A stretch of 64,000 nucleotides of DNA from Candidatus Omnitrophota bacterium (GCA_016201795.1 JACQCF010000004.1:10117-74116), one strand, 5' to 3'; shown: positions 19,901-40,543, counted from the first letter of the stretch. Notes: generated from the sequence alone by a model not told the origin. Made by a program: numbers and translations.

Positions 19901-20395
19901 ATGGAAAGCGGCCATCATTTAGCCAAATTTCAGCTATGGCAGCTTACTAATAAATTCTTGGCAGTATCTTTGGTTCTTTTATCTTTGTATTTTGTGTATG
20001 GAATTTTTTTCCTCAAGCCTTCTTACACACTCCAAGGGTCTGTCAAAAGCGAAGTGGATCCGCTGAAGGATACTAACATGAATAATCAGCCTTTTGCGCT
20101 ACAGAGAAAAGACTACTCTTATTATTTTGACAAAATCTCCGGCAGGGAATTGTTTGGCCAAACCCAGCAGACACTTTCCGTTGACACAGCCACAGTAGAT
20201 GAAGCGACGGATAACTTAAAGCTTGTGGGAATCATCGCGGGGAAGAGTCCGCAGGCTGTTGTGGAAGACAAGAAAAATGAAAAGACGTATTATCTCAATA
20301 AAGGGGACTCTTTTGAGGGTTTGAACGTGCAGGAGATTCTAGATAACAAAGTGATTCTTGACCATGAAGGAAAGAAAATGGCGCTTTCTTTGTAA
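19901..20395 (+). CDS. GspC/PilP-like secretin-interacting protein
   Basis: N-terminal TM. C-terminal LVGIIAG..PQAVVEDKKNEKTYYLNKGDSFEGLNVQEILDNKVIL, HR-domain-like. Immediately upstream of the secretin. Confidence 0.55.
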   Translation: MESGHHLAKFQLWQLTNKFLAVSLVLLSLYFVYGIFFLKPSYTLQGSVKSEVDPLKDTNMNNQPFALQRKDYSYYFDKISGRELFGQTQQTLSVDTATVDEATDNLKLVGIIAGKSPQAVVEDKKNEKTYYLNKGDSFEGLNVQEILDNKVILDHEGKKMALSL

Positions 20396-20412
20396 AAGGA
20401 ACAATTGACCTT

Positions 20413-22362
20413 ATGAAAACAAAACTCATAAGTATTTTGACGGCGGGGACGTTGTTTGTTGTGTCTATGTTGGGGCCTCTTCGGGTCTCGGGCCAGGAAG
20501 AGCCTCATCCCGCTTCCAATCTCAAGCAAGCGCCTGCGCAAATCCAGTCCGATAGAATCTCGCTGGATTTAAAAGGCATGGATGTGGTGGAAGTCATCAA
20601 GACCCTGGCTTCCCAGGGTAACTTGAATGTCGTCATAGGCGATGATGTCAAAGGCCGCGTGACGATTTTTTTAAAAAGCGTTAAGCTTATGGATGCCTTT
20701 GAGATTATCCTTGTGGCCAGCGACTTGGCCTATGACAGGCGGGGGGACATTATCTATGTCATGTCCCAGAGGGAATACGAGGACACCTATGGAGAGCGCT
20801 TTGCCGACAAAACAACGGCCAAAATCATTCAACTGAAATTTGCCAAAGCCGCTGAAGTGGCCAAGGCGTTGAACCAGATGAAAAGCAAGATCGGCAAAAT
20901 CATCGTGGATGAAGGTTCCAATACCATTGTCATGATGGACAGTCCTGTTTTAGTGACCCGCATGCAGGAGACGGCCGGCAAACTGGATTCACCCACCATA
21001 ACGAAAGTCTTCAGTCTCACCTACGCGAAAGCGGAAGATTTAAAGACCAAAATTTCCGAGAGCCTCACCCCCGGCATTGGCAGTATGCAGATTGATGAAA
21101 GGACCAATCAGGTTGTGGTCACCGATCTGGAGGGAAAGATGGCCAAAATCCAGCAGATGATAACAGCTTTTGATGAAAAATTGCAGCAAGTTTTTATCGA
21201 AGCCAAGATTGTGCAGATTACCCTCAATGACCAGTACAAAATGGGTGTGGACTGGAACAGTTTCCTTAATAAATTGCATAAAAACAGCATCAACAGTGCC
21301 TTTGGGCTGGCAGCCAGGGATACTCTTAATCCCGGCGCACAACTGGCCATCGGTTCCGGGGACCCCAACTCTGATTACAACATTGTTGTGCAGGCGTTAA
21401 AATCCATTGGCGATGCCAATCTGCTTTCCAGTCCCAGAATCACCGTCCTGAATAACCAGGAGGCAAAAATCTTGGTGGGTAAAACCCAGCCCTACGCGAT
21501 TAATACCGTGACCCAGGGAACAGCCACGACCACGACGGCCACGAACTTGCAGTTTATCGATATCGGGGTCAAACTCTATGTCACACCCGTGGTCAATCGG
21601 GATGGTTTTATTACCATGAAAATCAAGCCCGAGGTCAGCTCGGCCACCGACTTTTACACGTATGGCTCGCCTCCAACCACAGTTCCCATCGTGGAAACCA
21701 CCCAGGCGGAAACCAGTGTGACGGTCAAAGACGGCACCACTCTGATTATCGCGGGTCTTATCAAGGACGACAGAAACAGCCAGGTGGACAAGGTCCCGTT
21801 TTTGGGTGACCTTCCCTTGATTGGAAACGCCTTTCGAAAGACCGGTAAATCCATCAACAAGCAGGAACTGGTGGTTTTTTTGACTCCTCATATCGTGACC
21901 GGAGACAATGATTATGTGGTCGCGCCACCTAGTCCGCCCACTGGCGAAAAGAAATTCACCATGCCAGAGGATTTTGTTTTTGAACGCAGGGACAGGGTGA
22001 AAATGGACCCGGGCGTATTTAAAGAGAACCCTGTTCCTCAAGCTAGGGGAAAAGCAACGTCTTTTATAACGGTGTTGCCCGCAAGCGATCAGGAGTATTA
22101 TTACGTGGTTAAAGAAAAAATAGCCCAACAGATCATAGCACCCAAAGACAAAACGCATATCCCTTTGAAAGGGAAGGTGAAGGTGCAATTTTTTCTTTCT
22201 TCCAAAGGGGAACTCTTATACGCGCCCGAGATTGCGCAGTCAAGTAATTCTTCTTTGGATGAGGCGGTCATCGCCGCGGTAGTTAAAGCTGCGCCGTATC
22301 CAGCGTCTCCCCAAAAGGGGGTAAAACAGAAACGTTTTGTGGTGGATTTTTCCTTTGAGTAA
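20413..22362 (+). CDS. gspD: Secretin GspD/PilQ with a C-terminal TonB-C-like extension
   Basis: Signal peptide and N0/N1-type domains. Secretin core (LLSSPRITVLNNQEAKILVG ... VPFLGDLPLIGNAFRK ... VVFLTPHIV). A ~150-aa tail ending KGKVKVQFFLSSKGELLYAPEIAQSSNSSLDEAVIAAVVKAAPYPASPQKGVKQKRFVVDFSF. Confidence 0.9.
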   Translation: MKTKLISILTAGTLFVVSMLGPLRVSGQEEPHPASNLKQAPAQIQSDRISLDLKGMDVVEVIKTLASQGNLNVVIGDDVKGRVTIFLKSVKLMDAFEIILVASDLAYDRRGDIIYVMSQREYEDTYGERFADKTTAKIIQLKFAKAAEVAKALNQMKSKIGKIIVDEGSNTIVMMDSPVLVTRMQETAGKLDSPTITKVFSLTYAKAEDLKTKISESLTPGIGSMQIDERTNQVVVTDLEGKMAKIQQMITAFDEKLQQVFIEAKIVQITLNDQYKMGVDWNSFLNKLHKNSINSAFGLAARDTLNPGAQLAIGSGDPNSDYNIVVQALKSIGDANLLSSPRITVLNNQEAKILVGKTQPYAINTVTQGTATTTTATNLQFIDIGVKLYVTPVVNRDGFITMKIKPEVSSATDFYTYGSPPTTVPIVETTQAETSVTVKDGTTLIIAGLIKDDRNSQVDKVPFLGDLPLIGNAFRKTGKSINKQELVVFLTPHIVTGDNDYVVAPPSPPTGEKKFTMPEDFVFERRDRVKMDPGVFKENPVPQARGKATSFITVLPASDQEYYYVVKEKIAQQIIAPKDKTHIPLKGKVKVQFFLSSKGELLYAPEIAQSSNSSLDEAVIAAVVKAAPYPASPQKGVKQKRFVVDFSFE

Positions 22363-23014: not shown

Positions 23015-23653
23015 TTGTGCTTAAAGAAAAGAAAGTCCCCCATGTTCAAAGCCCGGCACAACCGCATAAGAAATTTCCCGCAGCCTTCAAGAACCCTTGA
23101 AGGTTTTTTATTTGTTCTTGCCTTTGCTGTTGGTATCGCCTACGCAGATCAATTGCCCCCTGGCATTAAAATAGTGGCTTATCACATCCAGCCTCTTGCT
23201 TTCAAGGCTTATGAAGACGTCTCGGATATCACTAAAATCCCAATTGTCTTCTCTAAATATGGGCAGGAAGCAAAGCTGGTATATCCGGCTCCAAAAGAAA
23301 ACACCATCCGCGAGACGTCCGTTATCATGAAAAAATGCAGAGAGGCCCTCTCGCGGAATGTCGAGAGGATCGTTAAGACTCAAAAAGAAAACAAAGCTGT
23401 GCATGATTATTTGACTTTGAAGGACAAGGTGCCCGCACTCAATAAAGAGGATTTTCTCAGGATTGTTGACGATCCCAGGGAAGCGACGTTCCAAAGGGAT
23501 CCCGCCACCAACAAGGCCGTGGCGGAGTTTCGGTCGAAGGAATTTCCCATCAATAAAAATATGGCCTTTTGTATCTATATAACCTTTATCTGCTCTTACG
23601 AACAGTCAACTGTTGAGAAAATCATTCTATCGGCGGTGAAACTTGAAAGCTAA
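23015..23653 (+). CDS. Hypothetical protein with N-terminal hydrophobic segment
   Basis: ORF downstream of the strong promoter. No motif recognised. Confidence 0.5.
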   Translation: MCLKKRKSPMFKARHNRIRNFPQPSRTLEGFLFVLAFAVGIAYADQLPPGIKIVAYHIQPLAFKAYEDVSDITKIPIVFSKYGQEAKLVYPAPKENTIRETSVIMKKCREALSRNVERIVKTQKENKAVHDYLTLKDKVPALNKEDFLRIVDDPREATFQRDPATNKAVAEFRSKEFPINKNMAFCIYITFICSYEQSTVEKIILSAVKLES

Positions 23654-24191
23654 AAATTTTTTATTCAGGGCAGTATCGTTAAGCGTTTTCTTCCTGTTAA
23701 ATTTAACTTATAGCAAAGCTGACGATAACACACAATCTAATCAAAATTATATTGCCAGTGGCAGTTCCATAAAAGTAACACAGGGAGGAGCTCTCTTTAA
23801 TACACAGATAGAATATTTTAAAATCACTGGCAACACTATTAATATCGATAGGAAGAATGATAATAAAGGTCTTGAGTCCAAATCAGCAAACTCTACTTCT
23901 GGGATATCTGTGGTTCATACCTCTGCAGGAACTAATCAATCTTTTGATTTAATAAATAAGACAAATACTGCCCGTTGGCAAAAGAAGACTTTTTCCACCG
24001 CACAGGCATCGAAGCCGATAGTTAAGATTACTCAATCAAAAGAATTACAGAATTTAGAACAGCATCGCAAAGCCAGAAAAGAAGCCTTAAAGAAAATGCT
24101 GGAATTGCGCCCGTCCCGTCGGGAAAATACTCTTATCAATAACCTAAACACCAACACCAACCAGGACGATCAAGACAATGCGCAGCCATAG
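23643..24191 (+). CDS. Hypothetical secreted Asn/Thr/Ser-rich protein
   Basis: Signal peptide MKAKNFLFRAVSLSVFFLLNLTYSKA. AT-rich. Confidence 0.5.
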   Translation: MKAKNFLFRAVSLSVFFLLNLTYSKADDNTQSNQNYIASGSSIKVTQGGALFNTQIEYFKITGNTINIDRKNDNKGLESKSANSTSGISVVHTSAGTNQSFDLINKTNTARWQKKTFSTAQASKPIVKITQSKELQNLEQHRKARKEALKKMLELRPSRRENTLINNLNTNTNQDDQDNAQP

Positions 24192-25650
24192 AACAGGTTC
24201 CGCGTTTTTTGTTTTTTTGTTTTTCCTTGCAAGCGCTGTCCATGCCCAGACTGCTACCTCGCGCATTGTGGTTTCTCCTCAATATCTGGTGCTTTACGCT
24301 GTGCAGGGGGCTACCACCAGCCAGTCCCAGACTTTTACTATTTCCAATGGCGGCACGGGAACACTGCATTTCAATTTGTCCAATGCCACATCTTGGTTAA
24401 GTATCAACACCTCCTCCGGTTCTGTCACAAATAACAAAGCCACCATCACCGCAACAGTCAATCCTTCGGGATTAACTTCCTCTTCAAGTCCTTATATCGT
24501 GGACATCACGATCTCAAATACCGATATTCCCCAGGACACTAAAAAAGTCAGGATCCGGTTATCTATTCTGGCCTCTGACGCTTATGTGCATAGCTACCAG
24601 TATGATTCTAAAGGAAATGTTGTAAGAAGAATCACCCCCAACGGCGATATTATTGAATATGCTTACGATGCTTTGGGCCATATGCTTCATATCTATTATC
24701 CCAATAGCCAAGAGGTCGACTATATCTATGGTGCAGTTGGAAACCGTATCTCGATGACGGATTGGCATGGAATCACCACATATGGCTATGACCAGCTCAA
24801 CCGTCTGCGTGGTGTTATTTACCCTAATATAAATCCCATCCTTTATGATTATGACAAATCAGGGAAATTGACGGCCATAACCTATCCGGACCAGTCAAAG
24901 GTCACCTACACCTATGATACAGATGGGAGACTAACGAATGTTGGTTATACCGCAGGGACAGTTACTTATACCTACAGTAACACTTCGAATAATCTTACAC
25001 AGAAAACTTTACCTAACGGGGCTTACACCACCTATAGCTACGATCTAGCCAAGAGGATTACAGATACAATAAATAAGCAATCCAATGGTTCACTGATTTC
25101 CAGTTATCATTATGCCTATGATGCCAACAGCAATATCACTCAGGAAATAGAAACCACCCCTACTGCAACAACGATCAAAAATTATATCTACGATAAACTC
25201 AATCGTTTAACAAACGTCAATTATTCTGATGGGACCTACGAAACCTATACGTATGACTCGATGGGAAATCGCCTGACAATGACAACCCAAACAGGCACAA
25301 CCACCTATGAATACGACTCCGACAACAGGCTCATCAGGGCCGGCAGCACGTATTATTTCTACGATAAAAACGGTAATACCATCAAAAAAGTCTCGCCCTT
25401 AAAAACAGAGACCTACCAGTATGACTACAATAACATGCTCACCCAGTATTCCGATGGTACCAATACCGTTACTTACCAGTATGACGGCGACCGTAACCGC
25501 ATAGCCAAGGTTGTCAATGGCACAATTACAAACTATATCAATGATATCAACAGACCCGTTGTCCAGGTCCTTATGGAAACCAACGCCAATTTAGTCATGA
25601 CTAAACGCTATGTCTACGGCAATGAACTCATCAGCCAGGAGGCCTTCTAA
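24178..25650 (+). CDS. RHS/YD-repeat protein, N-terminal part (signal peptide, Ig/BACON-like domain, YD repeats), ending inside a YD repeat
   Basis: Signal peptide. Ig-like segment TFTISNGGTGTLHFNLSNATSWLSINTSSGSV. Multiple YxYDxxG(R/N)L repeats. Ends RYVYGNELISQEAF*. Confidence 0.8.
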   Translation: MRSHRTGSAFFVFLFFLASAVHAQTATSRIVVSPQYLVLYAVQGATTSQSQTFTISNGGTGTLHFNLSNATSWLSINTSSGSVTNNKATITATVNPSGLTSSSSPYIVDITISNTDIPQDTKKVRIRLSILASDAYVHSYQYDSKGNVVRRITPNGDIIEYAYDALGHMLHIYYPNSQEVDYIYGAVGNRISMTDWHGITTYGYDQLNRLRGVIYPNINPILYDYDKSGKLTAITYPDQSKVTYTYDTDGRLTNVGYTAGTVTYTYSNTSNNLTQKTLPNGAYTTYSYDLAKRITDTINKQSNGSLISSYHYAYDANSNITQEIETTPTATTIKNYIYDKLNRLTNVNYSDGTYETYTYDSMGNRLTMTTQTGTTTYEYDSDNRLIRAGSTYYFYDKNGNTIKKVSPLKTETYQYDYNNMLTQYSDGTNTVTYQYDGDRNRIAKVVNGTITNYINDINRPVVQVLMETNANLVMTKRYVYGNELISQEAF

Positions 25651-25928
25651 TGCAAGAAAACAATTTTAAACCCGGTAAAGCTTTTTTCTTTCAAAATTTC
25701 AAATGGTATGAGCATTTGGCCGCCGGGTGGCCTTTATTTTTGATTTTTGTAGGAGGCGCCATTGGCGGCGGTTGCGGCGGCGCTGCTTATGTTATTAATG
25801 GCAAGATATTTGGTTCCAAGCTTTCTCAACTTTTAAAGTATGTGTGTTCTTTTTTGGTGGGATCGGGAGCGGTACTGCTTTACTTAATTATTGCGGTTAT
25901 TTTTAAGAGTTTATTTGTTCATAATTAA
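25650..25928 (+). CDS. Small two-TM membrane protein with Gly-rich loop
   Basis: ATG overlaps the upstream stop (TAATG). GGAIGGGCGGAAYVING segment. AT-rich. Confidence 0.5.
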   Translation: MQENNFKPGKAFFFQNFKWYEHLAAGWPLFLIFVGGAIGGGCGGAAYVINGKIFGSKLSQLLKYVCSFLVGSGAVLLYLIIAVIFKSLFVHN

Positions 25929-25935
25929 GGAAGCT

Positions 25936-26034
25936 TTAACCGAAGGTCAATGGCAGAATTTTGCCAACGCCAATTTGTCCGTTGGAAAGAAATATGTTGA
26001 TGGGAATGAACTGATAAGCCAGGAGTCGTTTTAA
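25936..26034 (+). other. Degenerate duplicate of the YD-protein 3' end (encodes ...NANLSVGKKYVDGNELISQESF*)
   Basis: Compare RYVYGNELISQEAF* at 25609-25650. Nucleotide similarity roughly 75% over ~35 nt. Confidence 0.45.
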
Positions 26035-26035
26035 C

Positions 26036-26794
26036 GTGAATAAAATTGCTAAATATATCCAGGAGGCGCATGGCAGGGTACAGCGAAGAAAGAGCCCATG
26101 GAATTGGATATTGCTGTTTTCTATTATTGGTATTGGAGGCAGCGGGTTTTTTATGTTTAAAGGTTTATCAGATATACAGCACCATTTAATTCCTACAGAC
26201 GTTATTCTCTCAAGTTGGACCGCGGTAGGCAGCGGTCTAATACTTCTTCCTACCCTTTTTCTGTCGCTTCCTCTTGGATTTATGTTTGCCAATCTTATTG
26301 CTTGGTGTATTCCTCCCGCAAGGAGAGCCTTGGACAGCGAAGCAAAGGAAATAAAAGGAAAAACTTTAAAGGAATCGATAAAGATAATCTCTATTGTCTT
26401 AATAGTCCTTCTCATAATTGTCACGCCGTTAAGCATTGTAGGAGTTTTTAATTATTTTTATGTGACCCCCAGCGGAGTTACTCTACGCCCCTTATTCTCA
26501 CTAAAGGAAAAACATTATGACTGGAGTGATATTGTAAGGATACACGGTAAGTTTTGGGATGCTCAGAACAATACTTTCAACAGGGAGTATGTTCTATATA
26601 TGAAGGATGGAAGAAAAGTTGATCTTGCTAATCCTGCTTCAACGTTTATAAATGCCTACGATAAAATAAAACCATTTATTCGAGCACAATCTCAAATATC
26701 ATATGACTATATTATAAAAGATACACGAATGTTTACAACCCCTTATACAGACTATGATAGAAAATTTATGAAGATAATTCAAAATAAAGACTAG
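26036..26794 (+). CDS. Four-TM membrane protein with C-terminal soluble domain, unknown function
   Basis: GTG start 1 nt after the remnant stop. Hydrophobic helices. AT-rich 3' half. Confidence 0.55.
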   Translation: MNKIAKYIQEAHGRVQRRKSPWNWILLFSIIGIGGSGFFMFKGLSDIQHHLIPTDVILSSWTAVGSGLILLPTLFLSLPLGFMFANLIAWCIPPARRALDSEAKEIKGKTLKESIKIISIVLIVLLIIVTPLSIVGVFNYFYVTPSGVTLRPLFSLKEKHYDWSDIVRIHGKFWDAQNNTFNREYVLYMKDGRKVDLANPASTFINAYDKIKPFIRAQSQISYDYIIKDTRMFTTPYTDYDRKFMKIIQNKD

Positions 26795-26862
26795 CCGATA
26801 GGAGTCTGAATATTTTACAAGGTACCTTTATTCAAAGACCGCTGCAAAACAGCATAGGCAGG

Positions 26863-29800
26863 ATGACCCTTGTCATAGGGATGACTCTTTTTGCCTATAC
26901 CAGTGAAGCCAGCGCGGATGTGAACTACTTTCTTTATAATGCCCCAAACCGTAGTGTTGTTCAATTAGTTAATACCACCAGCACCGTTAATAACAAGTAT
27001 GAATATGATGCCTTTGGAAATATCAAAACATCCACCGAAAACACAGCCAATGTTTATAAATACGTCGGAGAACAATTGGAGAAAGAATCAAGCCTTATTT
27101 TCTTAAGGAACCGCTATTATGATAGCTCTGCAGGAAGATTTATTACTAAAGATCTATTCCGTGGTTCAACTCAAGACCCGCGTACTATTAACCCCTACCC
27201 TTATTGTTCCAATAATCCTGTAAACCATATTGACCCTCAAGGGTTACTTGGTTTTGAGGATTTAATATTCGGAGGAGTAGGGGCAGTAGCTGGGGTTGTT
27301 GGTCAGATTGCTGGGGATTTGCTCAGCGGTAATCCGATTACTCCTGCAAATGTGATTGGCGCAGCTATTGGAGGCGCGGTTGGAGGGGAAACTTTATTAT
27401 ATACCATGAATCCAGTTTTAGCGGGTGCGGCTGGCGGCGCTGCTGGTAGTTCTTCCAAGCAATGGTTAGGAGCAGCTTTTGATCCTAATCACTCTCTGGA
27501 CAATCTTAATTTTGGAAAAGCTGCTTTTGACACAGTTGCTGGTGGAGCGCTTGGTTGGGTTGGTGGAAATGCAACAAGCGCTTTTGCAGGACGGGGAGGG
27601 TTTGAATCAATAACCAATCAGATAGTGACAAAATTAAGTCTAGGAGAAATTGGTGGTTTTTCGTTTCAAACTGGACTAAAAATGACTGCTTATAATGCTG
27701 AGCAGTCCTTTTTGGGAATAGGTTTTGATCTTGCAAAAGGCGGTGTTGAAAAGGGGGCCGGTTCTTTTGGCTTAATCGGTTCATTTGATCCGATTTTTTC
27801 CTTCGGCGGGGTCTCTTTGTCCAAAACCGCCCAGCTGATGATCAATGTCCAAGATGTGGGTGGTGCCACCTTTGATCCTTTGACCGGCCAGGTGATTCTC
27901 TACGGCAAGCAGAATGTGGCTTTGCCTAACATGGACCTGGATGATCTCTCTGTCGCGGTAGCTTCCGAATACGGACTGACCAAATCCCCCCAGGACCCAG
28001 GGGTTTCCATAGGGACTGAAACCTCCGATGTCCAGGGACAAATGAAAGTCCGCTATGACGGGGCAACCATTAACACCCGCTTTGGCTCTGTCATGTTTAA
28101 CTCTGATAGACTGCTTAAGACGTTAATCATGGGCAAGGACAATATCACAGGCAATCCCGTCACTTCCTCTGTGGCCGGCTACCAGAACATGCTGACTAGA
28201 TATCAGCAGGCCCAGTATCTGCCTCCCAATGGCTCCACCACCAGGATGTGGTTTGTGCCGTTACAGATAAGCCTGATTCAGTCTCCGGACGGCTCTGCCA
28301 TGGAATTCTCTACTACCACCATGCAGGTCCTTACCGAATCCAAATACCTCAATAACGTCACCGCTGACTCCTATGCCGAGGCCTTTGCTTCTCATTTGAC
28401 CCAGAACTATGATGCCTTCGCCAATGAAAGCCCTGTCTTAAAAGACCTTAAACGTTTAGGGGAGATAACCGCCATCGTCAAATGGATCAAGGACAATAAT
28501 ATTCCGTTTGACCTTTCGTTCTTCTCTAATTATACCCCTGCGTTTGTCAGCACACCGTCCTACACGCCCCAGACAACGGTCTCAACAAGCTGGACATCCG
28601 GCAACACCATTTACACCCTGACCATCACAGGCGGTGTTGTCTATAAACTGGACGCCAGCAACTTTTCCACGTCCGTGAATTCCTTGGCAACGACAGCCGC
28701 TCAAGCGGCCACAAGCACTCGGCCCAGTGATACGAATTTTACATGGAACTTCAGCGCGCAGGATGGTAATGGCCAGACGCAGGCATTTACCGCTATTGCC
28801 CAGTCGTTCGTCCGTTCCCAGAAAGACGGCAGCGTCAGGGGAGAAAAGACGGACATGAGTTTTCCGGTTGTGGGCGACAATCCGCTGGCACTGGTCAGAT
28901 ACTACAACTCTTTTTATGATAAAGCATCCGGCTTTGGCTACGGCTGGCAGAATACACCTTATGGATTGCGGTTTCCCGACGCGGCAAGGACATTTACCTT
29001 TGGCAATCAAGCCATCTCCGTCAGCGCTCATTACCAGATATACGTTAGAAAAGGAGAAAACGAGTATCTCTATACCCTTCTGGGTTTGGATACTGATGGC
29101 AAACCTTTGTATATGCGCGATGGTGGAAATGATGCTTTGAAAGATAATATGGATGGGACATTTCGATTGAACCGGAGAAGCAAATGGATGGTTTTTTTTG
29201 GTTCCCAGGGACAGGTCACCAGTGTAGTAGATAGAAATGGTATTGCCATCAATTATAATTATAATCCTTCCTTACAGTTGACTTCCATTGTCCACCAGAA
29301 CGGACGGACCATCACTGTGAATTATACCGGCAATACCATAACAAGCGCTGTGGGCCCGGACCCAAGGACGGTGACCTACACGTATTATCCCAACGGGCAG
29401 TTAAATACCGTCGTGGACGCGGCTAATCAGACCACCACCTATTTTTATGACGCGGATTTGCATATCACCAAAATTAACGACCCCAGAAGCAACGCTTCTT
29501 ATCAGGCCGTGTACGATGATTATAACCGCGCCACGTCCCAGACTTTGGGGGCGGCGGCCCAGTATTCCAAAACCTTTAACCTGTATGACCGCATGACGAC
29601 CACAACCGACCCCAATGGCGCCGCAACCACCCAGATGTTTGACGCGGATTATCGTCTTATCCAGAACCAAGATTTTCTTAACAATACAACCAACATTACT
29701 TATGATCCATCGGATTTTGGTCCGAGCAGCGTTACTAACCCTAACGGAGAATTATCGACATACCAATACGATTTTGTAGGAAATCTCTCGTCTATTAAGG

Positions 29801-36876: not shown

Positions 36877-37476
36877 ATGCTTCTTCGTTGTACTCAAAAA
36901 TTTCTCACCGAGCTTCGCCTTAAGAAAAAAGAGATCGCCGAATCTTGCGGAGTTTTGCATCCGTTGGATGAATGGTATGCGCACATCTTCTTTCTTTATC
37001 CTCGCAGAAAGAGCGCAATCTTTATGCACGCAAAGACAGGGTTTTGTTTCTTCGCCTTTGACCGGACACGGGATCAGTTAAATGACATTAAAGGCCTTTT
37101 TGGTAAATGCCTTGGCCGGGCCCTGTTTGATGAGCATTACCCTGCTTCGGTCATCAAGCTGTTTAATGAGCATCTTGAGAATATTCAAATAGGGCGGACC
37201 ATTGACCGAAAGATCGTGTCCCTGGTTAACCGGCGTCTCTTTGAATTGGGCTGTACTGGCGATTATCATCCTGATGACAGGCGAGTGCATGATGAGTTTC
37301 TTGCGGGACTGGATTTCCGCAGGGAATTGACACTCAAAGATTCTCGTTACCCAATTGAGCGGATGCGGGACCTTTTGGCAGGTCTGGATGAGTTAAGAGG
37401 GGTGGAGATACCTCCAGCGAAAGAGAAACATGAAGTTCTGGAAGCCTTTTTTGAGACGCTCAGGCGGAACAGATAG
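36877..37476 (+). CDS. Hypothetical protein (199 aa), no recognised domain
   Basis: ORF only. Confidence 0.5.
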   Translation: MLLRCTQKFLTELRLKKKEIAESCGVLHPLDEWYAHIFFLYPRRKSAIFMHAKTGFCFFAFDRTRDQLNDIKGLFGKCLGRALFDEHYPASVIKLFNEHLENIQIGRTIDRKIVSLVNRRLFELGCTGDYHPDDRRVHDEFLAGLDFRRELTLKDSRYPIERMRDLLAGLDELRGVEIPPAKEKHEVLEAFFETLRRNR

Positions 37477-37524
37477 ACCAATGTTCCAGTAGGAAGGGGA
37501 TTATGATAAGTAGGGGAATCAATT

Positions 37525-38391
37525 ATGGATTTATTCAATGATTCAAATGAAACAGTACAAAAACTATATGGAAAACAAATTTGTTCGAATTTTCCTGCTT
37601 ATAAAACCTTATGGGATGAATTTATAGGAGAAAGAGAACTAGGTGGAATACTGGAGCCCTATGAGACAGAATTTCCAAACACACCCTCAGAAATAAAAAT
37701 AATATTACAAGAGGAGTACAAACAAATATCCATCGTTCATTATTCTATTTTCTTTAATTTTGCATCAGCTCACGAAGATTTTAATTTAATCCTTAAGGCC
37801 CCAGCTGAGAAAAATGACAAAGAATATTTTTTATATCTAAAATGCATTAATTCGATATATTCCAATTTGGGGAATATATTCGACTTGCTTGAGAGATTAT
37901 TTGCAAATGTATTAACATTAGTCAATAAAAAGGGTAAACAGAAATTCAAAAAATATTTGAAGCTTAAATTAGCTTGGCCAGAGTACCTCCCTTTGGAAGA
38001 GACAATAAAGAAGAAACGAAACATTTTGGCGCATGCTTACTCGGTTATGCCAATGGTTATTCATAAAAATGATATTAAAATTCCTCTCAGCTTGGTAAAT
38101 CCCAAAGGAAATGATAAGACTGTCTCTGAATTATTAGCTGAAGATAAGAAAGAATGGGTGTCTTTACAAAACGTTCTTAAAGAAGATATTGAAAAAATGG
38201 AGAAACTTGTAAATAAAATTGACTTGCTTTTCATAAATGAGCTTCAGGAATTTAAAAGAAAAGGAGGGATTCTCATTAGATACCCTGCCAATTCAACTTC
38301 TTATGGAATGCAAAGTCTTCCTTCTCTTTCAGCAAGACCTGTTTCAACCAGTAGTACTATTATCATTAAACCCTCAGGGTGCCAAACTTAA
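37525..38391 (+). CDS. AT-rich hypothetical protein with HEPN-type Rx4HxY motif (KKRNILAHAY); putative abortive-infection/toxin RNase
   Basis: GC clearly lower than its flanks (about 33% by eye). Motif R-N-I-L-A-H-A-Y at about residue 175 matches the HEPN Rx4-6H(xY) signature. Confidence 0.5.
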   Translation: MDLFNDSNETVQKLYGKQICSNFPAYKTLWDEFIGERELGGILEPYETEFPNTPSEIKIILQEEYKQISIVHYSIFFNFASAHEDFNLILKAPAEKNDKEYFLYLKCINSIYSNLGNIFDLLERLFANVLTLVNKKGKQKFKKYLKLKLAWPEYLPLEETIKKKRNILAHAYSVMPMVIHKNDIKIPLSLVNPKGNDKTVSELLAEDKKEWVSLQNVLKEDIEKMEKLVNKIDLLFINELQEFKRKGGILIRYPANSTSYGMQSLPSLSARPVSTSSTIIIKPSGCQT

Positions 38392-38436
38392 TGTATAAAA
38401 CCAACAATAGTTATATGATATTGATAAATCTAGAGC

Positions 38437-38577
38437 TTGGTGCTGGAGCGCTTGGCCGATGTTAAAACGGTGTCAGATAATTTTTTTAAGCTGGCGGCTC
38501 ATGATTTTGAGGATGCCAGAAAATTGTTAGATACCATCAACACCGACGAAAAGTTATCGAATATTTTTGATATGTAA
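38437..38577 (+). CDS. Possible small ORF (~46 aa, TTG/GTG start), protein-like sequence ...LADVKTVSDNFFKLAAHDFEDARKLLDTINTDEKLSNIFDM
   Basis: Not in the ORF track (short, non-ATG start). Could be a gene remnant. Confidence 0.2.
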   Translation: MVLERLADVKTVSDNFFKLAAHDFEDARKLLDTINTDEKLSNIFDM

Positions 38578-38617
38578 AAAATACAAGGCTTAATTTGACT
38601 TTACATCAAGAAAGTTG

Positions 38618-38645
38618 TTGACAAAATAAATGATTCTGGTAATAT
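38618..38645 (+). promoter_or_regulatory. Sigma70-like promoter TTGACA-N16/17-TAATAT
   Basis: Preceded by TTTACATCAAG at 38600, shared with the 22925 promoter. Confidence 0.45.
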
Positions 38646-38731
38646 CATTCCCAGCAGTCAAGAAACACTGATACCGATTCCCCATCGGTGAAAAGTTTTA
38701 AAAACTTCCCCAAACAATCTTCAGGAAATAC

Positions 38732-39679
38732 ATGCTTAAAAATTTTTCATTTCTGGTATTTATTCTCATAGGGATACTCTCTGGCTGTTTACAGCAAGCA
38801 CCCGAGACCGAACAAGCCCAGGGTGGCGTTAGAGACGACTTGCTTAAAAAATATGACAAAATGGTTTCGGAAAGGCAAAAAGAAATCAACCACCTTGCCA
38901 ATGAAATTAAGCACAACGACCATTCCGCGGACTTATTTTATCGGAAGGCCCTTCTTGAGATAGAAAATAACAATTTACGGGATGCTTTATCGCAATGCTG
39001 GCTTTATAAAGACTCCGCTGGTCATAAAGAAGAGAAGAAAGTCTACGGCCTTTTTTCAGTGTTGCAAGACAGGGCCAAGGGCGTGCGGGAGGATATGAAA
39101 GGTGTCATATTAACTCATCCCGATTGTTTTAAAATCGCGGACACCAGTGAATTAATCGCCTCCTATCAACAAAGGGCCATGTCTTCCTCTTATGATATCG
39201 TCCAGCAGCCTGTCAGGGACTTGAGCAGGGCCATAGAGCTGGGGACAAGGCAGAAAGAAGCTTACCTTTACAGATCCCAGCTTGATACAGAATCGGAACT
39301 GAATGACTACTCCAAAGCGTTAAGTATTACCCCTGATGCCCCAACCTACATTAAAAGAGCCATTTTGTATTATCAAAAAGATGATCGCCTGGTTTATCGC
39401 GACTGCCTGAATGCGATAAATTTAGACCCAGGGTATCCCGATAGCTATGTCTTAAAAGCCCTGGAGGAATGGAATAATTCTGCTTCTTGTTCCAATAGTG
39501 ATCATAGCGTAAGAAAGGCCTGCCAACGGCAAGTGGCTCAAACAATATTAAATGATTTAAAGACAGCGTATGCGTACGATCCAAGTTTTCCTTTATTGAA
39601 AGAGGATATCGAAAGATATAGCAAGTCCTTAGAAGAGGATGACCCCGAAGTCTGGGGATTTAGTTCTGAGAATTATTAG
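38732..39679 (+). CDS. Lipoprotein with TPR-like helical repeats
   Basis: Lipobox LSGC. Repeated helical motifs (YRKALLEIENNNLRDAL, YIKRAILYYQKDD, YVLKALEEWNN). Confidence 0.6.
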   Translation: MLKNFSFLVFILIGILSGCLQQAPETEQAQGGVRDDLLKKYDKMVSERQKEINHLANEIKHNDHSADLFYRKALLEIENNNLRDALSQCWLYKDSAGHKEEKKVYGLFSVLQDRAKGVREDMKGVILTHPDCFKIADTSELIASYQQRAMSSSYDIVQQPVRDLSRAIELGTRQKEAYLYRSQLDTESELNDYSKALSITPDAPTYIKRAILYYQKDDRLVYRDCLNAINLDPGYPDSYVLKALEEWNNSASCSNSDHSVRKACQRQVAQTILNDLKTAYAYDPSFPLLKEDIERYSKSLEEDDPEVWGFSSENY

Positions 39680-39716
39680 AGAAAGAGGTTTGCAGTCTTT
39701 ATAGTTTTTTAACAGA

Positions 39717-39754
39717 AGCTCAATTTCTTTTCACCCATATAAAGAAATTGAACT
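39717..39754. promoter_or_regulatory. 14-bp inverted repeat AGCTCAATTTCTTT-N10-AAAGAAATTGAACT (1 mismatch), candidate operator or oriT-like site
   Basis: Seen directly, 34 nt upstream of the Replic_Relax-like gene. Confidence 0.4.
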
Positions 39755-39787
39755 TGCAAGATGTATTTTTTGTAAAGGTATCCGTTT

Positions 39788-40543
39788 ATGTATACGGTCC
39801 CGCAAAAAATCAAAATCTTGAAGTTCGTGGGTGAACAGGGAATTGTCACCGTTTCCGATGTAGCCCGCCATTTATTAAAGCCCGACAAATTCGCCGCCAT
39901 TCGCATCACCATGCATCAGCTGGGTATTTCCCACATGAAATACCGCCACATTGAGCATGGCGTCTGGTTTATTGACAAGCCGCAATTGTATGAGCTTTTG
40001 ACTTCCTATTTCCCCGGCTATCCCTTGATGGAAGTCATTCCTGTTGCCGACCATCATATCCCGCATTACCTGGAGCTTAATCGAGTCCGTATCACGTTAG
40101 AACAAACCAGTCAAATTATCCTGGATGAATGGTGGTCAGAGTATTACATCCGGGCCCTGCCGGCGTCCTTAAAAGGCGATTTTAACAGTACTAACTATCC
40201 GGATGCCATTTTCTGGCGCAAACGCGCGGATGGCAGCCGTCAGAAGTTCTTCCTTGAATACGAGCGCAGTTTAAAGAACCCCGAGCGTTACATACAGATT
40301 TTCAGGGCCTACATTAAAAGGCAAGACGTTGCCAACCGCAATGTCATCTATTTATGCCATACGCCAGCCATCAGACAAAACCTGATGAGCATAGAACAAC
40401 GACTGGCGCAAACCGGCCAACTGGAAGCGGCTGGCTTGCATTTTCAATTTGTCGATTTAGAGAGTTTCTATAAATCCCATGCACAAAACAAGGAGGTCTT
40501 CGATGAAGTTAGTCAAACAGCTTTACAAAGCGCTGTGGTTTAA
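39788..40543 (+). CDS. Replication-relaxation (Replic_Relax)-family-like protein with N-terminal wHTH
   Basis: N-terminal ...FVGEQGIVTVSDVARHL... then PDAIFWRKRADGSRQKFFLEYERSLKNPERYIQIFRAY block. Heads the T4SS gene set. Confidence 0.45.
   Translation: MYTVPQKIKILKFVGEQGIVTVSDVARHLLKPDKFAAIRITMHQLGISHMKYRHIEHGVWFIDKPQLYELLTSYFPGYPLMEVIPVADHHIPHYLELNRVRITLEQTSQIILDEWWSEYYIRALPASLKGDFNSTNYPDAIFWRKRADGSRQKFFLEYERSLKNPERYIQIFRAYIKRQDVANRNVIYLCHTPAIRQNLMSIEQRLAQTGQLEAAGLHFQFVDLESFYKSHAQNKEVFDEVSQTALQSAVV

Follow-up and report, generated by a model that had tools for sequence, protein, structure and literature searches.

A Rhs locus in a Candidatus Omnitrophota bacterium that is probably naturally split between a YD-repeat shell gene and a giant gene

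In a 64,000-nucleotide stretch of DNA from a Candidatus Omnitrophota bacterium (GCA_016201795.1 JACQCF010000004.1:10117-74116; hereafter the window), a YD-repeat gene of 490 amino acids (aa), called A here, is followed by two small membrane-protein genes, tm92 and tm252, and by a giant gene of 2945 aa, called B. A preliminary description of this DNA had read these genes as a giant Rhs gene interrupted by an inserted cassette. Following our analyses, we consider that the locus is a conserved, naturally split polymorphic Rhs locus and not a freshly interrupted gene, and we would give this reading a probability of about two in three (0.65). The idea of an interrupted gene is right on ancestry, and wrong on recency and on the extent of the variable region.

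The C-terminus of A is RYVYGNELISQEAF*, with the stop three codons past the motif YGNELISQ. Pfam searches identified RHS_repeat (PF05593, E 6e-40) and BACON_2 in A, and TIGR01643 was also matched; there was no match to TIGR03696, and consequently no Rhs-associated core was found in A. A junction query made of the end of A and the start of B, compared with proteins, returned three classes. The first consists of intact Rhs proteins of 610-653 aa (P0002-P0006; P and L numbers are our handles for proteins and loci), which are collinear with the query across the junction (..RYTYGDSRLSQMNHGVTSYYVYDNPGRSVVAVV..) at 53-55% identity over 96-99% of its length. The earlier suggestion that a single Rhs protein continues from A into the start of B is therefore upheld, although not the suggestion that the break is recent. 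The other two classes are A-type proteins of about 490 aa and of about 650-665 aa, both covering the A part only. All 27 A-type clusters, which are 47-78% identical to A, stop two or three residues past ISQ (EEF, EAF, ESF, EEM and similar), and this new C-terminus (ISQE-E/A-F/M) is conserved among them. In about 70 ordinary Rhs loci the same motif, YVYGDDLISQ, continues for about 300 residues further.

Shell and core are thus found on separate polypeptides, the core starting after the B signal peptide, 1.27 kb 3' of the A stop. The part of B that holds the core, the B-head, lies 0.44-6.2 kb 3' of A in every locus of the clade that is long enough, except L092, and the gaps between A and B in these related loci (again 0.44-6.2 kb) hold unrelated genes. 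Each B-head examined in related loci has its own start and its own signal peptide, with cleavage predicted 2-4 residues before the YY.YD strand. Because the stop falls at the same codon in 27 clusters and B has its own start and signal peptide, the split appears to be old, not recent. A length of about 490 aa is the standard stand-alone length of A-type proteins, which together with the signal peptide of B speaks against a recent interruption or a pseudogene. No uninterrupted allele was found within the split clade, the uninterrupted forms being those of sister genomes and of genomes of the Planctomycetes-Verrucomicrobia-Chlamydiae (PVC) group. A full-text literature search returned no paper using the terms "split Rhs" or "bipartite Rhs", and a preprint on giant genes of Omnitrophota mentions Rhs solely as a structural analogy; no description of such an Rhs split was found in the searchable literature.

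The features of the locus are as follows, with positions counted from the first nucleotide of the window; CT is our label for the variable region of B, GC3 is the GC content at third codon positions, and Ig and FN3 stand for immunoglobulin and fibronectin type III.

23643..24191, + strand: gene for a 182-aa secreted protein, conserved operon partner upstream of A, with its last 14 nt shared with the start of A
24178..25650, + strand: gene A, 490 aa; signal peptide, BACON/Ig-like domain, about 350 aa of YD repeats, no Rhs core
25580..25650, + strand: direct repeat copy 1, the genuine 3' end of A (NANLVMTKRYVYGNELISQEAF*)
25650..25928, + strand: tm92, 92-aa two-helix membrane protein; translational coupling to A via the TAATG overlap; candidate orphan immunity cassette
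25964..26034, + strand: direct repeat copy 2, displaced remnant of another A tail (NANLSVGKKYVDGNELISQESF*), with no 5' A sequence attached
26036..26794, + strand: tm252, 252 aa, GTG start; four predicted membrane helices and a soluble C-terminal part; candidate cognate immunity gene for the CT of B
68 nt: spacer between the end of tm252 and the ATG of B
26788..26862, + strand: open frame 5' of the B ATG; vestigial or non-ATG-initiated part of the N-region of the B signal peptide
26863..35700, + strand: gene B, 2945 aa
26863..26916, + strand: B signal peptide callable from the first ATG (MTLVIGMTLFAYTSEASA), without a positively charged N-region
26917..27246, + strand: B-head, the last Rhs beta-strands and the Rhs-associated core; terminal DPQGL at 27232-27246
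27247..27801, + strand: CT, variable, glycine-zipper-like, about 185 aa, internal to the giant open reading frame (ORF); candidate toxin
27802..35700, + strand: B-body, with a domain of about 340 aa without family, DUF6531 (about 28900) and a second YD-repeat block (to about 30500)
3' of about 30500, + strand: remainder of the B-body, Ig/FN3-like domains and then a C-terminal part without family match; no core in the B-body
25651..27750, + strand: low-GC3 island, the proposed exchangeable module, with the cassette genes, B signal peptide, head and CT

Protein A is identical to an NCBI entry, "RHS repeat protein [Candidatus Omnitrophica]", and the arrangement is the same in two independent assemblies. 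In B, residues 19-128, which end in DPQGL, correspond to the full TIGR03696 model (E 6e-21; positions 1-76 of 76). The RHS core model of E. coli is also matched by the N-terminus, over the last approximately 100 model positions; Pfam identified PF05593 as well (E 5e-38). The Asp of GRF[IV].KD is present in all B-heads examined, and the second Asp, in DPxG, in all but one (DSLG in the stand-alone gene of L003). Past DPxG there are about 150-250 residues that are unrelated between loci, after which all sequences converge on GGVSLSKTA.., and the position of the CT holds unrelated sequence in L006, L003, L007, L013 and L014. The variable domain is not C-terminal, as about 2,630 conserved residues follow the window CT. 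Members of the same CT family end other Rhs-core fragments (P0293-P0298), one of them annotated as VgrG by its source. Searches of Pfam and NCBIfam with ten CT domains gave nothing above threshold; papain/NlpC-like Cys/His motifs in some CTs (L013, L095) are an impression only. Neither the domain of about 340 aa (B residues 314-660) nor the C-terminal approximately 450 residues (about 2500-2945; window 34300-35700) had a match in Pfam or a sequence match in the PDB.

The frame of B is open from 26788, 75 nt before the ATG at 26863, as had been pointed out in the preliminary description, but the YD-like sequence that it placed there (YFLYNAPNRS..) starts at 26923, after the ATG. The 75 nt are instead homologous to the N-region of the signal peptide in the B proteins of L175 and L177, with RLAD aligned to MLRD/MLKK.

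The modules of the window are joined differently in related loci. From these comparisons, the ancestral unit appears to be a YD half-shell (A), the last strands with the Rhs core (head), the variable CT, and a body made of the domain of about 340 aa, DUF6531 and the second YD block. In sister Omnitrophota loci (L169-L173) an intact mini-Rhs gene of 610-650 aa, comprising A, head and CT, is followed by 0-3 small genes and a separate giant gene; these giant genes have their own signal peptide, and they share 46% identity with B along about 1,900 residues, the alignment starting at B residue 314 (FGGVSLSKTA..). Metagenome-assembled genomes of the PVC group (L095, L093, L079) have a single ORF of about 1,570 aa in the order signal peptide, A-like YD block, head/core, CT, domain of the 340-aa type, DUF6531 and second YD block. 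The window clade has A, and then a gene composed of signal peptide, head, CT and body. Because the body is an independent gene in the sister loci, we regard B as head and CT joined to the body. Genes consisting of signal peptide, head and CT alone are also found, in L003 (17586-18635, 349 aa) and, in a more distant system, as P0293 in L179. The L003 gene sits between A and a giant B that has its own head, and one A gene may serve several plug-toxin genes.

In a neighbour-joining tree of the A region, the split forms (76% bootstrap) and the intact forms (99%) were sister groups, and the fused forms (92%) branched outside both. Judged from this tree, the split clade probably had a single origin, and the simplest history would be a fused ancestor that was broken between CT and body in one lineage and between A and head in the other. 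In L177 (3486-4589) a stop that follows ..GPGRSVV interrupts the B-head, which continues from LVYLRNRYYD, and in L094 (9923-14441) the fused ORF is split within the CT; these breaks could be pseudogenes or assembly errors.

Two small genes 5' of A (212 aa and 182 aa; 23015-24191) are adjacent to A in other loci too, and homologues of the 182-aa gene are found directly 5' of A in L006 and L003. In the A relatives of about 650-665 aa (P0024-P0030) an N-terminal extension equivalent to the 182-aa protein is fused onto A, which would make this a second fusion/fission boundary of the same operon.

The 490-aa ORF and the diverged second copy of its tail, both reported earlier, were confirmed. The second in-frame copy, ..KYVDGNELISQESF*, ends at 26034, and the two copies form an ungapped direct repeat of 71 nt with a spacing of 384 nt, in which 50/71 nt and 16/22 aa are identical and the stop codons are in register. 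A degenerate pattern back-translated from GNELISQE had exactly two matches in the 64 kb, versus none in 100 shuffles, and a third copy of the repeat was not found near the start of B. To the left of the repeat, identity drops at once to about 25-30%, the random level. The earlier claim of a degenerate direct repeat is thus correct, but not that it flanks a two-gene cassette of 1.2 kb, as the repeat brackets tm92 only. A membrane-protein gene does follow each tail copy immediately, through the TAATG at 25650 and through a GTG at 26036, 1 nt past the second stop.

The second copy corresponds to the last 22 codons of an A gene and differs from the first at 13 codons, seven of the differences being synonymous and six non-synonymous. 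The remnant resembles the end of another A allele more than a local duplication. Like the remnants in orphan modules, it is a fragment of a conserved gene without its 5' part, displaced 3' of the main gene (25964-26034); it does not run into a toxin-encoding CT, and its stop is in register with that of A. A comparable remnant of 58 aa lies behind a YhcG nuclease gene in L091. In L177 the order is A, tm252, B, with tm252 directly after A and no tm92, which suggests an earlier state of the window locus. The repeat could then be the scar of an exchange, in which a 3' part of A, together with tm92, would have entered A by recombination, so that the old tail and tm252 came to lie further downstream. 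Such displacement is the accepted way in which orphan modules of rhs and cdi loci are formed (PMC3150448, PMC3967940).

The composition of the region suggests that the exchanged unit is larger than the two-gene cassette. The 1.2-kb cassette is lower in GC than the window mean (0.379 versus 0.438, the 9th percentile of 1.2-kb windows), so that the "AT-rich" cassette described before is real but modest, and the low GC3 extends beyond 26862. A has a GC3 of 0.50 overall and of 0.55-0.68 at its 3' end, and the B-body reaches 0.6-0.7 from about 27750-27800; between them the values are 0.20-0.38 (tm92 0.37, tm252 0.33, head about 0.36-0.37, CT 0.27-0.28). Summarised, GC3 is 0.27-0.37 in the island and 0.50-0.56 in its flanks. 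The low-GC3 block therefore does not end at 26862; its right-hand limit is near 27750, about 0.9 kb inside the giant ORF. The same island of gap, head and CT was seen in L012, L011, L003 and L013.

Across ten loci the identity of heads was uncorrelated with the identity of A (Spearman 0.11, p 0.47), and locus pairs whose A genes are 72-81% identical have heads merely 47-53% identical, while body identities track those of A. The closest head to that of the window is in L175 (61%), which shares the CT family and tm252, and the A genes of these two loci are 54% identical. Because the head is uncoupled from A and falls within the low-GC3 island, the exchangeable unit appears to be about 2.1 kb, from the A stop codon to the CT/body junction (25651 to about 27750). 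As judged from composition and identities, A and the body would be resident and the block between them compositionally foreign and exchanged independently of A. The near-identical contigs L007 (12338-17362) and L008 (12338-17239) differ 3' of A: in L008 B is a single continuous gene (>1634 aa), and in L007 a truncated B of 637 aa is followed by an 88-aa gene, a gene with tetratricopeptide repeats and another B-head gene, whose CT is different. The difference looks like a turnover of cartridges at strain level.

Both tm92 and tm252 are predicted to be multi-pass membrane proteins. The tm92 family has 361 representatives and no Pfam model, and a homologue that is 72% identical lies 1 nt past the A stop in L180, where A is of a different lineage. 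The tm252 start at 26036 is backed by homologues of 250-256 aa that cover 100% of it; about 20 homologues were found (44-60% identity), and Pfam gave only sub-threshold hints of a bacterial pleckstrin-homology domain. In L175 and L177 a tm252 homologue lies directly 5' of a B gene whose CT is of the same family as the window CT (53% identical), and the A genes of these two loci belong to other sub-lineages than the window A. In total, tm252 is directly 5' of B in 3/3 loci with this CT family (window, L175, L177); loci with other CT types have other gap genes and no complete tm252, with short tm252-like fragments only in L011, L013 and L092. Because tm252 accompanies the same CT family in L175 and L177, we propose that the two are paired, and the position of the gene suggests a putative immunity/toxin pair in reversed order, with the immunity gene 5' of the toxin. 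No small gene lies 3' of the window CT. A 149-aa membrane protein 3' of the same CT family in L179 was considered as a relative of tm252 and rejected (BLASTP E 0.72; hhalign probability 0.5%).

Homologues of tm252 are also found alone in unrelated genomes, with no YD gene nearby, for example on a Desulfobacterales chromosome (L174, 8001-8771) and next to a serine recombinase/RhuM island (L176, 8001-8624), and in this they would behave as orphan immunity genes do. For tm92, we infer a candidate role as an additional or orphan immunity gene. The gap genes elsewhere include many small multi-pass membrane proteins, a SUFU-family gene after A in L090, and genes of mobile-element type (KilA-N, ORF6N, YhcG nuclease, IS200 transposase). 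The immunity proteins of polymorphic toxin systems include members of the SUFU family.

To place the split within the fold, we used an AlphaFold2 model of the intact homologue P0002, for which the predicted local distance difference test score (pLDDT) is >90 over most of residues 40-510. The split point maps to a beta-hairpin made of strands 391-396 and 399-405, at the turn of two residues that connects them, and the last strand of A and the first strand of mature B would therefore have been neighbours in the ancestral fold. Template-modelling (TM) scores, which refer to the P0002 model and not to the window proteins, were best against TcC chains (6l7i_G 0.59/0.56, 6sue_F 0.63), and comparisons with TccC2, TccC3 and YenC2 gave 0.54-0.63, a TcC-like half-shell fold. 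In profile matches to the PDB, A and the YD block of the B-body aligned with residues 767-1024 versus 298-728 of RhsP and 1193-1455 versus 945-1246 of 8qja, and A and the DUF6531+YD part of B with residues 836-1136 versus 596-811 of RhsA; A is C-proximal and B is N-proximal.

Perhaps A and B are brought together after export. Both would be exported separately by Sec, after which the last strand of A (..ELISQEAF) would pair with the first of mature B (DVNYFLYN..), re-forming what is one beta-hairpin in the intact protein, so that the N-terminus of mature B would supply A with its missing last strands and plug. A with the head as C-proximal half, and DUF6531+YD of B as N-proximal half, might then build one full-size cocoon, as TcB and TcC do. 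Since the aspartates are conserved, it is suggested that the core aspartyl protease probably cuts after DPQGL, after which the remainder of about 2,800 aa would start with the CT at its new N-terminus. The complete proposal is of a Rhs cocoon assembled after Sec export from permuted pieces, with B DUF6531+YD as the N-half, A and the B head as the C-half and plug, a plug-toxin cartridge with its own signal peptide, and a toxin that is tethered to a surface protein of about 2,800 aa or is its new N-terminus. We put it forward tentatively, as a possibility that may well prove wrong.

Other explanations have to be considered. A recent insertion of two genes (1.2 kb) into a continuous giant Rhs gene, with a target-site-like repeat and with A and B as pseudogene halves, would account for the collinearity of A and the B-head with intact Rhs proteins, for the lower GC of the cassette and for the frame that is open 5' of the B ATG. 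However, that open frame is signal-peptide sequence and not YD sequence, the same-codon stop recurs in 27 clusters down to 47% identity, the B genes carry their own signal peptides, and the ORFs of 490 and 2945 aa are both intact. Moreover, the repeat flanks tm92 only, a stop codon ends both copies, and Pfam and NCBIfam searches of the cassette (25651-26862) found no transposase or recombinase, so that we judge this origin very improbable. Even harder to believe is a programmed rejoining, by DNA rearrangement between the repeats or by translational recoding, into a continuous A-B protein. The direct repeats do exist and the 3' genes are tightly coupled to stop codons, but recombination between the repeats would delete tm92 alone, there is no repeat at the start of B and no recombinase gene nearby, the gap in relatives varies over 0.44-6.2 kb with unrelated content, and B has a signal peptide; we give this explanation practically no credence. 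The other proposal of the preliminary description, that the two short units are orphan C-terminal tips with immunity genes, unconnected with the giant ORF, is closer to the evidence than the interruption. The second tail is indeed a displaced remnant followed by a gene, the membrane genes are immunity-like and tm92 and tm252 recur at the same positions in other loci, and there is another remnant in L091. What does not fit is that the tips lack a toxin, stopping three codons past the conserved motif, that the first tip is the genuine end of A, that the variable domain is in B and tm252 co-occurs with its CT, and that the compositional island includes the B head and CT. As a full account it is improbable.

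A different kind of explanation is that the two genes are independent, A being a stand-alone secreted YD/Ig adhesin and the B-head a self-cleaving pro-domain acting in cis, with their synteny reflecting history or co-regulation. The presence of A without a nearby B in L092 would be expected in that case, as would heads that have been swapped independently of A, with about 50% identity between close A relatives, which argues against tight co-adaptation, and a cargo of 2,800 aa is not encapsulable. Against it, both ends coincide precisely with a single beta-turn of the intact fold, the C-terminus of A (ISQE-E/A-F/M) is conserved, A and B are neighbours in every long locus except one, all the modules are connected by versions that are fused or split in other ways, and a head of about 105 aa would be left without a shell to fold against. 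We regard independent genes as unlikely, but as an alternative to be taken seriously.

Several observations also weigh against the reading that we prefer, of a conserved and naturally split locus. No curated family of toxins or immunity proteins in Pfam or NCBIfam was matched by the CT, tm92 or tm252, and their proposed roles are drawn from position and from co-occurrence in three loci that are maybe not independent. In L092 (1-11030) A is followed by four membrane-protein cassettes, of which two have relatives among the cassettes of L007 and L090, and further on by housekeeping genes, with no B within 10 kb. The bootstrap for a single origin of the split is 76% only, and several heads have E, N, K or D instead of L after DPxG. 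The mapping of A and B onto two halves of a shell is only suggestive, as YD repeats align in several registers, and a single-sequence AlphaFold2 model of the B-body (27802-30588) had a pLDDT of 32 and was not usable. The approximately 2,800 residues past the core are too large for the cocoon, and classical encapsulation and release cannot apply unchanged. Finally, the position of the ATG in L175 and L177 B is AGA in the window, the first canonical start coming 25 codons later, and because the signal peptide read from there (MTLVIGMTLFAYTSEASA) has no charged N-region, the export of the window B is uncertain. All relatives have full signal peptides at that position, and the window sequence is the same in both assemblies; either B uses a non-ATG start (for example ATT 26830, preceded by AAGGT) or its export would be impaired.

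The surroundings of the locus were also analysed. A scan for promoters and terminators over 23500-27400 gave no more promoter-like sites than expected by chance and no terminator with a clear position, and is uninformative on operon structure. A gene similar to T2SS-C of the type II secretion system (T2SS) and a secretin gene are found 5' of the locus (window 19901-22362), where other loci have different neighbours. We left aside the possibility that the secretin/T2SS genes are part of the Rhs system, since this neighbourhood is not common to related loci and a link to export is unproven. On the 3' side of B there are sub-threshold BrnT-like and CopG-antitoxin-like matches at 36287-36843, a possible toxin-antitoxin pair, followed by a DUF6933 gene, a very AT-rich stretch (GC 0.31-0.35 at 37400-38600) and a gene at 39788-40543 with a weak, sub-threshold Replic_Relax match. 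The region 36287-40543 may be a mobile-element remnant.

The usual view of Rhs proteins is of single chains, or of TcB/TcC pairs, that fold around their own C-terminal toxin. The lineage described here would have long kept a shell gene without a plug, the plug and a polymorphic domain forming the front of a giant surface protein that is exported on its own, with candidate immunity genes between the two. If the pieces do assemble, covalent continuity would be dispensable for a Rhs cocoon, and plug-toxin cartridges could be swapped under a resident shell, which would bear on toxin loading, on the engineering of split encapsulation and on the role of large Omnitrophota surface proteins. A permuted cocoon formed after Sec export would be a Sec-dependent, contact-type delivery design not described for Rhs, possibly used in the proposed host- or prey-dependent lifestyle of Omnitrophota. 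In practical terms, A would be called a truncated "RHS repeat protein" by annotation pipelines, which would overlook the toxin-like domain inside B as well as the immunity candidates upstream of it.

Among known systems, WapA of Bacillus is a Sec-exported Rhs/YD toxin that depends on a signal peptide and has a polymorphic C-terminal toxin and an adjacent immunity gene; it differs from the window system in being a single polypeptide, in having its toxin at the end and in having the immunity gene downstream. The classical Rhs polymorphic toxins of E. coli, Salmonella and Dickeya, with their orphan rhs-CT/immunity modules (PMC3150448, PMC3967940), share with the window the YD shell, the core with DPxGL followed by a hypervariable domain, and small adjacent genes of immunity type. 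They also share the entry of modules via conserved upstream sequence, leaving displaced remnants, here the 71-nt repeat. In contrast to these toxins, shell and core here are on different polypeptides with their own signal peptides, the variable domain is internal with about 2,600 conserved residues after it, the candidate immunity genes are 5' of the toxin, between A and B, the remnant is without toxin, and there is no PAAR, VgrG or type VI secretion system context here.

A parallel to the assembly that we infer is with the BC part of Tc toxins (TcB-TcC; PDB 4igl, 4o9x, 6l7i), in which two YD-repeat proteins form one cocoon, and in which there is likewise a core-bearing partner with an exchangeable hypervariable region, and natural fusions and splits. 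However, the Pfam matches of B include no SpvB, no TcdB_toxin_midN/midC and no beta-propeller gate, no TcA was seen (none was searched for), the break lies about three hairpins before the core, and core and CT are attached to the N-terminus of the other YD protein. Teneurins and the teneurin-like proteins of bacteria (PDB 6fb3, 9ifo) also have a YD shell within a very large multidomain surface protein with Ig/FN domains, and in these too the chain continues past the core region and does not end inside the shell. Unlike the teneurins, which are single chains in canonical order, the window system has its modules permuted and split, with a polymorphic domain after the core and with the catalytic aspartates kept.

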